Positions 41,403 through 43,031 of a stretch of DNA of 44,545 bases are shown here, piece by piece; the stretch's first letter is position 1; each line of letters begins with the position of its first letter. Made by a program: the position numbers and the translations under genes. The notes under the pieces are model-generated. The model ran no database searches. It had not been told where the DNA came from and saw only the letters and a program-made list of their open reading frames with translations. The stretch is from Planctomycetota bacterium (lineage in GTDB: Bacteria; Planctomycetota; UBA1135; UBA2386): NCBI GenBank assembly GCA_051274975.1, contig JBNMND010000003.1, positions 1-44,545 of the forward strand, in the 5' to 3' direction.

Positions 41403-43031
41403 ATGATTAGCCTGCGATCCGTGCTCTGGCTGCTGCTCGTCTGTGCGAGTGCGGTGGCCCAGATACCGTTGCGTGCCAGCGATCCTGAGATCGATCAAGT
41501 CAGCCTGAGTGCGGTCACCACCAAGGATGCGGTGATCGTGGATCTCGTCATCGCCGAGGGTTGGCATGCCTACTCGCGTGACGTCGGCGGTGGCATGCCG
41601 CTCGTAATCGAGCTGGCTGCGGACTGTGACTTCGTCGCCACCGGCAAGCTCAAGCTGCCGAACGCGCATGGAGGCAAAGTAACTGGCAAGGCGCGTTGGC
41701 AGTTGCCGATCAAGGCTCGTGGTGCGGGTCGAGACTTTCGCGCCGTCTTGACATTCCAGGTCTGCGATGAGCTTGAGTGCTTGGCGCCGGCGGAAGTCGA
41801 ACTGCAAAGCGCGCCGCCGATGAATGTGCTGCTCGTGGTCGACGCCGAGGATGAGCGCAGTGCGCGCATCACGAAGCTACTGGGCGAGCGTGGCATTCAG
41901 TCGCACGTCACGACCTACGCGAAGGTCACGACGGCCGCGTGCTACAGCCACGATGTAGTGCTCGCCGACTCAAAGTTGTTCCGTCAAGGTGCTCGAGTGC
42001 GCGACCTCGTGTTGAAGTTCCCGCAGACGGTCACGCCGATTGTGGCCGTCGGGCTTTGGGGTACTGAGTTGATCGAGGCGCACGGGATAGCGATGACCTC
42101 GGGCTACATTTGAATCTGCATGGATCACCAGGGCCACGGGATGGACCTAAACCATGACATCTTCCAGAAGCCGCACGCCGTCACGTTCGAGCACCTCGAG
42201 CAGGACCGACCTAAGCACTACGAAGGCGCGACGTCGCCGTTGTGGCCGAAGGGTGTGCCGGACAAATACAAGCTGGCGCAGTTCGAACACAAGAAGCCTG
42301 AAACGCCGAATCCAACCGTTGTCAGTCACGAAGGGTTCTTCACCGACGTGCCGGGATTTGAGAGTTTGGCAGAAGGCAACTCCGGCAAGATGCTCGGCAG
42401 CCTCTCGCTGGCGCGCCAAGGCCGCTACTTCTACTGGGGTTACTCAACTGACCCCCAAGACCTGACGGCCGGCGGGCAAGACACGTTGATCAACGTGCTG
42501 CACTACATGAATGGTCGCCGCGGCGAGCAGACGACGCCGTTCGTGAGCAAGACGCGCAAGATTCTTTGGGTCTACACGATGCTCGGCAAGGAGAAGGGCT
42601 ACAAACGCGGCGTCGAAGAGCACTTCCCGAACCAGTTGGTCGAGGAGTGGCGCGAGAGTTACACTCCGACCTTCGATGGTGCGGATGCGTGGGTGAAGGA
42701 GAACTTGTCTTACGTGTTTAGCGGCAAGTCCGAGAAGCACGCCGATAAGCGCTATAAGACGCGGTTCGAAGTCGATGCCGATGCGAAGGCGATGGGCACT
42801 GCGAACAACAAGCGCGACAGCTTGGAGAAGTGGATCGCCTTGGCGGATCAAGAAGGTGCCGACGCCGAGGATCGTGCGCGAGCCAAGCGTTGCTTGAAGC
42901 GTTACGTGCATACGCCGATCTATCCAGACGGCGGCACTTGGGCAGCTTGGTATGCCAAACACCGCGAGAACCTAGTGTTTGTCGATTCGGCAGGCTTCTG
43001 GTGGATGTTGGACCCGACCAAGACGCAGTAG
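41403..43031 (+). CDS. Putative secreted selenoprotein: DsbD-N-like domain + unassigned domain with U-x-C motif (Sec at TGA 42111-42113, residue 237 of 542)
   Basis: Track ORFs ending 42113 and starting 42120 are in frame, joined by TGA-ATC-TGC (…[15 protein letters not shown]…). Signal peptide; IAEGWHAYS...[12 protein letters not shown] is DsbD-alpha-like. No SD before ATG 42120; a hairpin follows the TGA. Confidence 0.72.
42111..42159 (+). promoter_or_regulatory. Putative bacterial SECIS element
   Basis: CATGG(42119-23)/CCATG(42152-56) lower stem; AGG/CCT and CCA/TGG upper stem; loop CGGGA (42137-41) is 23 nt from the TGA. Confidence 0.55.

Follow-up and report, generated by a model that had tools for sequence, protein, structure and literature searches.

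The alpha domain of DsbD (DsbD-alpha; E. coli and Neisseria DsbD, PF11412) and that of ScsB are periplasmic domains of Ig-like fold, and the two cysteines of DsbD-alpha have a redox role. To our knowledge, the known partners of DsbD-alpha are thioredoxin-fold proteins. A different, alpha/beta fold is shared by the glutamine amidotransferases (GATases) GMP synthase GATase, TrpG, PabA and HisH and by ThuA-like proteins. Here we describe a planctomycete gene whose predicted product joins a domain of each kind. It lies at 41403-43031 on the forward strand of the window, by which we mean the whole 44,545-nt stretch analysed (contig JBNMND010000003.1 of assembly GCA_051274975.1; 507 contigs, 89.8% complete). 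On sequence evidence, we are highly confident that the gene encodes one exported protein of 542 residues with selenocysteine (Sec, U) at an in-frame TGA. As far as checked, it represents a real, previously undescribed selenoprotein family in a new fold context.

The window protein resembles DsbD-alpha and ScsB-alpha in an Ig-like fold, a Pfam match above cut-off, an aligned pair of cysteines and a predicted periplasmic location. It differs from DsbD-alpha in the spacing of that pair, which is Cx4C rather than Cx5C, and in the fused partner, a GATase1-like domain; compared with full-length DsbD, it has neither the membrane domain (PF02683) nor the C-terminal thioredoxin domain (Pfam, E<=1). Its residues 138-375 have the alpha/beta fold of the GATases and ThuA-like proteins, from which it is distinguished by its export, a new U/C-x-C motif, an added helical domain and the lack of a match to PF00117 or PF06283 at E<=1.

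A 2026 review tabulates 119 prokaryotic selenoprotein families and subfamilies (PMC13188914). In the part of this table accessible to us, no entry carries PF11412 or the core domain; the comparison covered the listed Pfam, TIGR and NF models, with the entries defined by cd or PTHR models and GOS_A lying outside it. No Pfam or NCBIfam model covers the core of the protein: a Pfam scan at E<=1 returned nothing besides DsbD_N, and an NCBIfam scan at E<=1 only a chance match to NF002670. These results agree with the original prediction, made from the window sequence, that the protein belongs to no described selenoprotein family. As far as its available entry goes, the GATase-type selenoprotein of the table is likewise a predicted selenoprotein on a glutamine-amidotransferase scaffold, but its Sec sits in the canonical G-x-C-x-G nucleophile motif, whereas the U-x-C of the window protein lies elsewhere in the domain; NF004836 did not match the window protein (P0001) at E<=1. 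The UxC entries in the accessible part are a thioredoxin-like protein and a transporter only, which belong to other folds and families, and neither model matched.

A periplasm-facing C-x-C pair has been described in MauE, where, according to the available text, it is needed for disulfide-forming activity (bioRxiv 10.64898/2026.03.05.709764). MauE is a DsbB/VKOR-like membrane protein whose fold is unrelated to that of the window protein, and this text reports no Sec forms. None of the nine new families of deep-Sep or of the GOS families is described like the window family in the descriptions available for comparison; for GOS_A the accessible sources list no domain, motif or accession, and it does not appear in the 2026 table as available. 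The literature accessible to us yielded no paper on the window family, and Dataset S2 with GOS_A (PMC2398784) and Table S9 of the Porphyra planctomycete paper (PMC4807772) could hold it.

The interrupted reading frame and its homologues

Two open reading frames (ORFs) in the ORF list of the window, 41193..42113 and 42120..43031, share one frame; the window sequence reads TGA at 42111-42113, then ATC TGC ATG. With TGA translated as U, 41403-43031 encodes 542 residues, of which only U237, in GYIUICMD, comes from a recoded codon; this confirms the prediction of one frame broken only by this TGA. The coding features are:

41403..43031, forward strand: whole predicted selenoprotein gene, 542 codons followed by a TAG stop, with UGA codon 237 read as Sec; orthologues at 42-89% identity are unbroken over the site

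41403..41462, forward strand: probable Sec-type signal peptide, residues 1-20, read from the sequence; aligned relatives have a similar leader

42111..42119, forward strand: U-x-C motif, comprising TGA (Sec237), ATC (I238) and TGC (C239); both U/C positions are invariant in 140 aligned members, U being read as C

The ATG at 42120 had been described as lacking a Shine-Dalgarno sequence and its product as lacking a signal peptide. Inspection by eye agrees, since the 16 bases upstream (CTACATTTGAATCTGC) hold no AGGAGG-like or purine-rich stretch and the product has no hydrophobic leader at its start. Read from the sequence, the N-terminus of the 542-residue protein resembles a signal peptide in having a single positive charge, a hydrophobic core of 14 residues and AVA-Q. 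A similar hydrophobic leader stands at the start of 19/19 aligned family members, and AlphaFold2 (AF2) places a helix at residues 4-14 with a low predicted local distance difference test score (pLDDT 68 and 59).

Public protein databases hold only the second half of the protein: the 120 best matches listed are all 300-328 aa long and cover 54-56% of the query, as expected if standard annotation splits the gene. One shortened relative has been named 'protein-disulfide reductase DsbD domain-containing protein' by NCBI, and homologues with Cys in place of Sec carry the names 'hypothetical protein' or 'redoxin family protein'. An Atlas search with the natural Cys homologue P0124 retrieved only 'hypothetical protein' clusters from Planctomycetota and Bacteroidota.

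The TGA is conserved among relatives. A scan of one genome per species, with a profile from the six-orthologue alignment A2, found TGA at the site in 34/34 orthologous loci with 42-89% identity. These loci are from metagenome-assembled genomes titled as Planctomycetota, except for one bin labelled otherwise, and five coincide with loci L012-L016 of a sample of 301 genomes of the phylum. A DNA search of that sample gave 26 match rows spanning residue 237, 25 of which hold exactly one TGA. TGA forms still predominated when a profile of the Cys form was run on 401 sampled genomes of the phylum, accounting for 37 of 38 rows that span the site, as counted by hand. The motif U-x-C-[LM] recurs in 20 diverse loci at 20-61% identity. 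One exceptional member, L027 / L108 (G272:C93), has neither TGA/Sec nor Cys at the site (LKLDMNGPPTAGAAH) and may have lost the redox centre.

When a profile of 19 read-through members was scored against 1.84 billion proteins, 2138 representatives reached E<=1e-3 and 435 reached E<=1e-30. Among the 149 best representatives, 104 are unbroken proteins with C-x-C at the aligned columns (e.g. NWFCLCL, SWLCQCL and GSGCTCL), 40 begin at or just past the site, and five have other residues there. Many of those starting at the site open with 'MCL...', the signature of a gene call restarted past the TGA, and at least two are merely cut Cys forms. Judged by sequence, the TGA and C-x-C forms are a classical Sec/Cys pair; homologues unbroken over residue 237, with either TGA or C-x-C, had been named in the original prediction as the support to look for. 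The unbroken Cys forms come from Aquisphaera (for example A. insulae WP_165227325.1), Neorhodopirellula and Puia and from metagenome clusters labelled as Bacteroidota or Planctomycetota. Sec and Cys forms intermingle in a tree of 194 members, for which parsimony counts about 22 changes; the tree is used only qualitatively because the label 'truncated = Sec' is rough, at least P0248 and P0269 being cut Cys forms.

Eight positions are invariant across the 140 aligned members (U/C237, C239, P257, E320, G346, N364, D458 and W516), and H251, K329, R338, R500 and Y501 are conserved in at least 90%. The Sec/Cys pair marks U237/C239 as the probable functional centre of a large family, whose members are labelled 'hypothetical protein' in the records consulted, and offers a concrete starting point for its study. 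Given the predominance of TGA forms in the 401 Planctomycetota genomes, the family is well suited to the question of why a lineage prefers Sec to Cys.

In three DNA runs, contigs spanning 42111-42113 show the TGA unchanged, with no other letter listed; they possibly stem from the source sample and are thus not independent support. A single RNA run contributed one 209-nt contig, 41816-42024, which ends short of the TGA and is uninformative on read-through or expression level.

The hairpin downstream of the TGA and the selenocysteine machinery

The original prediction noted a stem-loop at the distance from the TGA typical of a Sec insertion sequence (SECIS), and comparison across the family strengthened this reading through conservation in 48 sequences and compensatory changes. 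The features are:

42129..42149, forward strand: candidate SECIS core hairpin, positions 19-39 from the U of UGA, with loop CGGGA at 42137-42141; the window copy has one G/A mismatch or bulged A

42115..42168, forward strand: extended fold around the hairpin predicted with RNAfold, with lower stem CAUGG (42119-42123) / CCAUG (42152-42156), for which the evidence is weaker

In the window the CGGGA loop has a spacing of 23 nt from the UGA, and RNAfold gives -10.6 kcal/mol for 57 nt that include the lower stem, which is kept in L041 and L042 and altered in L043. We aligned 48 distinct 54-nt stretches starting at the U of UGA without gaps, and all fold with a hairpin centred on nt 27-31. At the pairs 19-26/32-39, 78.4% of cells can pair vs 67.3% in shuffles (none of 500 shuffles reached 78.4%), and there are 31 cells with a double change vs 10.3 in shuffles (0/500). 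Controls with a slid register paired in 23-50% of cells. The stem differs by subfamily, with the types GGGCCA/UGGCCC, GCGCA/UGCGC, GCACA/UGUGC, CGCGUA/UACGCG and GGCCG/CGGCC.

According to the legend of Fig. 2 of the review, the part of the source available to us on this point, the published bacterial SECIS model has a loop of 3-9 nt with G in its first two positions, a stem of 4-16 bp, a location 16-37 nt past the UGA and a minimum free energy (MFE) of <= -7.5 kcal/mol. The family hairpin agrees with this model, having a 5-nt CGGGN loop, a stem of 5-8 bp, a spacing of 23 nt and a mean of -11.2 kcal/mol.

Codon use is constrained over the same stretch. Synonymous sites under the hairpin are frozen, with GGC, CAC and GGG each kept in 32/32 orthologues, in which codon entropy is 0.41 bits over codons 237-250 vs 1.04 elsewhere; the eight lowest-entropy windows of 164 sliding windows all fall within codons 234-257. 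As a control we fetched 80 loci of Cys-form genes; the 69 that carried the motif yielded 36 different stretches. These pair in 42% of cells in that register vs 78% for the Sec forms, and five or more of the six inner pairs are present in 0/36 Cys forms vs 40/48 Sec forms.

The genome contains the machinery for Sec insertion, selA, selB, selC and selD all being present, the point on which the original prediction had asked for a check of the host. A tRNA-Sec scores 74 bits against a gathering score of 47 and is called by ARAGORN as tRNA-SeC with anticodon tca. SelA scores 380.5 bits, and the SelB wing domain scores 47.1 bits in a 648-aa open frame. Adjoining selA is selD, with its own in-frame TGA in SSGUAAK (G000:C134:26-1825; L075, L009). 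Both selD and the second family member of this genome have G-rich 5-nt loops at a distance similar to that of the window hairpin.

Domain architecture and links to thiol redox proteins

The AF2 model, built from a 140-sequence alignment, has a pLDDT of 92.1 and a predicted template modelling score (pTM) of 0.88 over the whole protein. Its domains and the cysteine pair are:

41487..41816, forward strand: DsbD-alpha-like Ig-fold domain, residues 29-138, from Pfam DsbD_N and VIA-align to DsbD-alpha structures

41763..41780, forward strand: Cx4C pair C121...C126 (CDELEC), invariant in the six orthologues of A2

41814..42527, forward strand: alpha/beta domain like class I glutamine amidotransferases, residues 138-375, from Foldseek and VIA-align; it holds the predicted Sec codon

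42528..43028, forward strand: mostly helical C-terminal domain, residues 376-542, from AF2 secondary structure, with pLDDT 84-98 per 10-residue block

The original prediction placed an Ig-like region with CDELEC behind the signal peptide and likened it to DsbD-alpha, and both parts of that claim stood. Pfam DsbD_N (PF11412) matches residues 34-130 (E 2e-6, 28.2 bits vs a cut-off of 25), and VIA-align of residues 29-138 gives 6dps_E (Z 12.1, root mean square deviation (rmsd) 2.0, 100 aligned) and 1jpe_A (Z 11.0, rmsd 2.1, 97 aligned). C121 and C126 correspond to the redox pair of E. coli DsbD-alpha, the family profile 'YQaC.deqsClpP' aligning with 'YQGCaDAGFCYPP' of 1l6p. Profile searches of the PDB with alignments A4 and A5 returned DsbD-alpha only, and a search with the six-orthologue sequence profile returned no match at 0.01.

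The domain holding U237 had been predicted to be of an alpha/beta type other than thioredoxin, and AF2 and Foldseek now assign it a class I glutamine-amidotransferase-like fold. Against this fold overall, residues 138-375 score Z 12-14 with 170-198 residues aligned; individual matches include 7yc6 (Z 14.0, rmsd 3.2, 171 aligned), the ThuA-like 1t0b_A (Z 13.3, 195 aligned) and HisH 4gud (Z 13.1-13.3), so that by these Z values the likeness to ThuA is no better than that to true GATases. The Atlas score to a ThuA cluster was 0.83, obtained with the Cys homologue P0124 as query and serving as a lead only. Residues 138-375 form one globular domain in the model, and the TGA thus falls in its middle. 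Consistent with mobility, the U-x-C loop (residues 231-240) has a pLDDT of 76, lower than any other part of this domain as far as residue 300; residues 301-310 score lower still, at 66.

In GATases the nucleophile sits at an elbow with a characteristic motif. At the corresponding position of the window protein, judged from the order of secondary structure in the AF2 model, Gly217 and not Cys follows strand 213-216. In a weak hhalign match of the C-terminal part to four GATases of the same genome (probability 2.2%, E 0.022), D350-P351-Q352 lies opposite H-P-E. The canonical Cys-His-Glu triad thus appears to have been lost from the modelled domain. The C-terminal helical domain holds the invariant D458 and W516 and the near-invariant R500 and Y501; a wide VIA search with the whole model as query returned no row over residues 376-542.

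A DsbD_N-like domain is fused in 121/194 members, at the N-terminus in 32 (the clade of the window protein) and at the C-terminus in 89, and its occurrence at either end points to a selenol/thiol redox relay. None of the four cysteines of C-x-C and Cx4C (C135, C137, C579 and C584) varies among 55 Cys forms. The only two members with a DsbD_N-like domain that lack CxC also lack Cx4C (GDPFSS and CNPRSR), an anecdotal observation on two cases. TlpA/ResA-like thioredoxin domains are fused in P0162, P0217 and L034. One DsbD_TM/CcdA gene is present in the genome, on a contig other than that of the selenoprotein gene.

Three members of the family have further features of their own. The genome of the window holds both domain orders, its paralogue G000:C293:184-2166 (L080) having U-L-C-L followed by a C-terminal DsbD_N (Pfam 4e-8), together with a perfect 8-bp SECIS stem (-11.9 kcal/mol). 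L034 (G122:C181:4602-8161) lies in a frame, that of 1471-3318 and beyond, of 1186 codons without TAA or TAG and with two in-frame TGAs. One of these is in the family motif GGYGUTCL and the other in WGFWUGPCV inside a thioredoxin-like domain, with another TlpA-like domain upstream; from its sequence, L034 is possibly a giant protein with two Sec residues. P0210 (1048 aa) is a Cys form in which the core and a DsbD_N-like domain are followed by a C-terminal erythromycin-esterase-like domain (PF05139, E 6e-25).

Proposed redox relay, competing explanations and neighbouring genes

Taken as a whole, an exported selenoprotein acting in a redox relay is the explanation that we consider probable, and for the relay mechanism itself, in which U237/C239 and the fused Cx4C pair would cooperate, we judge the balance to be slightly favourable. 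The UGA at 42111-42113 would be decoded as Sec by the genome's own SelA, SelB, SelD and tRNA-Sec, the signal being the hairpin inside the coding sequence. The invariant U237-x-C239 would sit on a loop about 20 residues past the old nucleophile elbow of the amidotransferase-like domain and may cycle between selenol/thiol and selenenylsulfide. Its oxidised periplasmic substrate could be, for instance, a peroxide, sulfoxide or disulfide, and the Cx4C pair of the DsbD-alpha-like domain would re-reduce the centre. That pair may in turn be fed from the membrane by a CcdA/DsbD-type protein via a TlpA-like thioredoxin; in some relatives the TlpA-like domain is part of the same polypeptide. The direction of flow, in which Cx4C would reduce the U-x-C centre, is that of the original prediction; we infer it by analogy with DsbD-alpha in E. 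coli.

More tentatively, and with slightly less than even confidence, we suggest that the window protein founds, as its first selenoprotein, a widespread and so far unrecognised family of periplasmic redox enzymes (2138 representatives, Planctomycetota and Bacteroidota). In this family an amidotransferase scaffold would have been rebuilt around U/C-x-C as the terminal acceptor of a DsbD-alpha-type relay, with Sec nearly fully replacing Cys in the sampled Planctomycetota. If true, this would add a new branch to the extracytoplasmic reducing pathways, with a DsbD-alpha partner that does not have the thioredoxin fold; a real relay would also mean that the amidotransferase fold was taken over for selenol/thiol chemistry outside the cytoplasm. 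With a model of the family, many Planctomycetota annotations would be corrected and the prokaryotic selenoproteome would gain a family.

A number of observations weigh against these interpretations. No hairpin in the set is weaker than that of the window, which has a bulged A or G/A mismatch and whose core, at -5.3 kcal/mol, misses the energy limit of -7.5 kcal/mol, the value of -10.6 kcal/mol being reached only with the lower stem. Folding 86 nt around the site gives no advantage over shuffles (z +1.5; 187/200 of these fold at least equally well), and z-scores of 36-nt stretches vs shuffles are alike in Sec and Cys forms (-0.49 and -0.50), which places the signal in the fixed register and not in overall stability. 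The Cys-form genes used as control belong to a single clade, in which G+C is lower (0.51 vs 0.60) and the motif is AHH rather than AHG; the hairpin loop partly encodes a conserved His-Gly, and the 34 orthologues are kin, so that the shuffle statistics are inflated. An Rfam search of 42050-42250 gave no match at E up to 10. Co-occurrence with SelA is not discriminating, as SelA is found in 18/18 genomes with TGA forms but also in 17/20 without a family match. The loss of the triad is read from a weak hhalign match (probability 2.2%, E 0.022) and secondary-structure order. The DsbD_N-like domain is absent from 53/151 CxC members and from 17/38 truncated members, and a relay in cis is thus not obligatory. 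Beyond close kin, no conserved neighbour or redox operon was found across 32 loci, isocitrate dehydrogenase adjoining the gene in only 7/32.

Two alternatives retain the selenoprotein and change its chemistry. In the first, which we consider unlikely, soft metals or metalloids such as Cu(I), Hg or Se/Te species bind at U237-x-C239, perhaps together with H251, and the protein is a periplasmic chaperone, sensor or detoxifier whose DsbD-alpha-like and TlpA-like domains only keep the site reduced. CxC motifs are often metal-binding, and TlpA is known to keep ScoI reduced. The conservation of H251 in at least 90% of members, 12 residues past C239, would suit such a site, as would the presence of the copper-stress protein ScsB among the structural matches of the N-terminal domain (6c29_A, Z 12.0). 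The accessible part of the 2026 table also lists predicted metal-handling selenoproteins, including a UxC Cu/Zn efflux transporter (NF033936) and CopZ-like and MerP-like proteins. However, profile scans matched no metal-binding family, no metal-resistance genes adjoin the gene, and the invariant or near-invariant polar residues E320, N364, D458, K329 and R338 look more like an enzyme pocket than like a mere site of binding.

In the second, for which we hold little expectation, the protein is an amidase or an enzyme of gamma-glutamyl type rather than an oxidoreductase, and Sec237 serves hydrolysis or group transfer as the nucleophile of a Sec-His-Glu triad (U237, H251 and E320) rebuilt on the amidotransferase scaffold. 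GATase1 enzymes, gamma-glutamyl peptidase and gamma-glutamyl hydrolase share the fold, two of the three triad residues (U237 and E320) do not vary and the third (H251) hardly does, and the available 2026 table includes the GATase-type selenoprotein with Sec in GxUxG. The invariance of C239, which equals that of U237, speaks against this reading, as do the fusions to thiol-redox domains in 121/194 members and the joint loss of CxC and Cx4C in two members with a DsbD_N-like domain. PF00117 does not match, and ThuA-like and other non-catalytic members of the fold score equally (1t0b_A, Z 13.3).

That the protein is no selenoprotein at all, the TGA being a true stop between two genes, a pseudogene lesion or an assembly error, is very improbable: gene callers do split the gene (the 120 matches listed, all of 300-328 aa), the NCBI name of one shortened relative refers to the DsbD domain only and the window hairpin alone is weak, but the TGA is kept with frame on both sides in 34/34 orthologous loci at 42-89% identity, falls mid-way in one confidently modelled globular domain, has unbroken Cys homologues (104/149) and is unchanged in three DNA runs, though these are not independent.

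Among the neighbours of the selenoprotein gene in the window, Pfam identified a monomeric isocitrate dehydrogenase, a PQQ-type propeller, GT87 and a phosphoesterase, with one ORF giving no match. An ORF of 174 aa at 43034-43555 (forward strand), which has no Pfam match and is not kept beside distant orthologues, begins 3 nt past the stop codon of the selenoprotein gene. Elsewhere in the window, at 28779-33659 on the forward strand, an ORF of 1626 aa combines a UvrA DNA-binding match with several ABC/AAA matches and is far longer than the usual UvrA.

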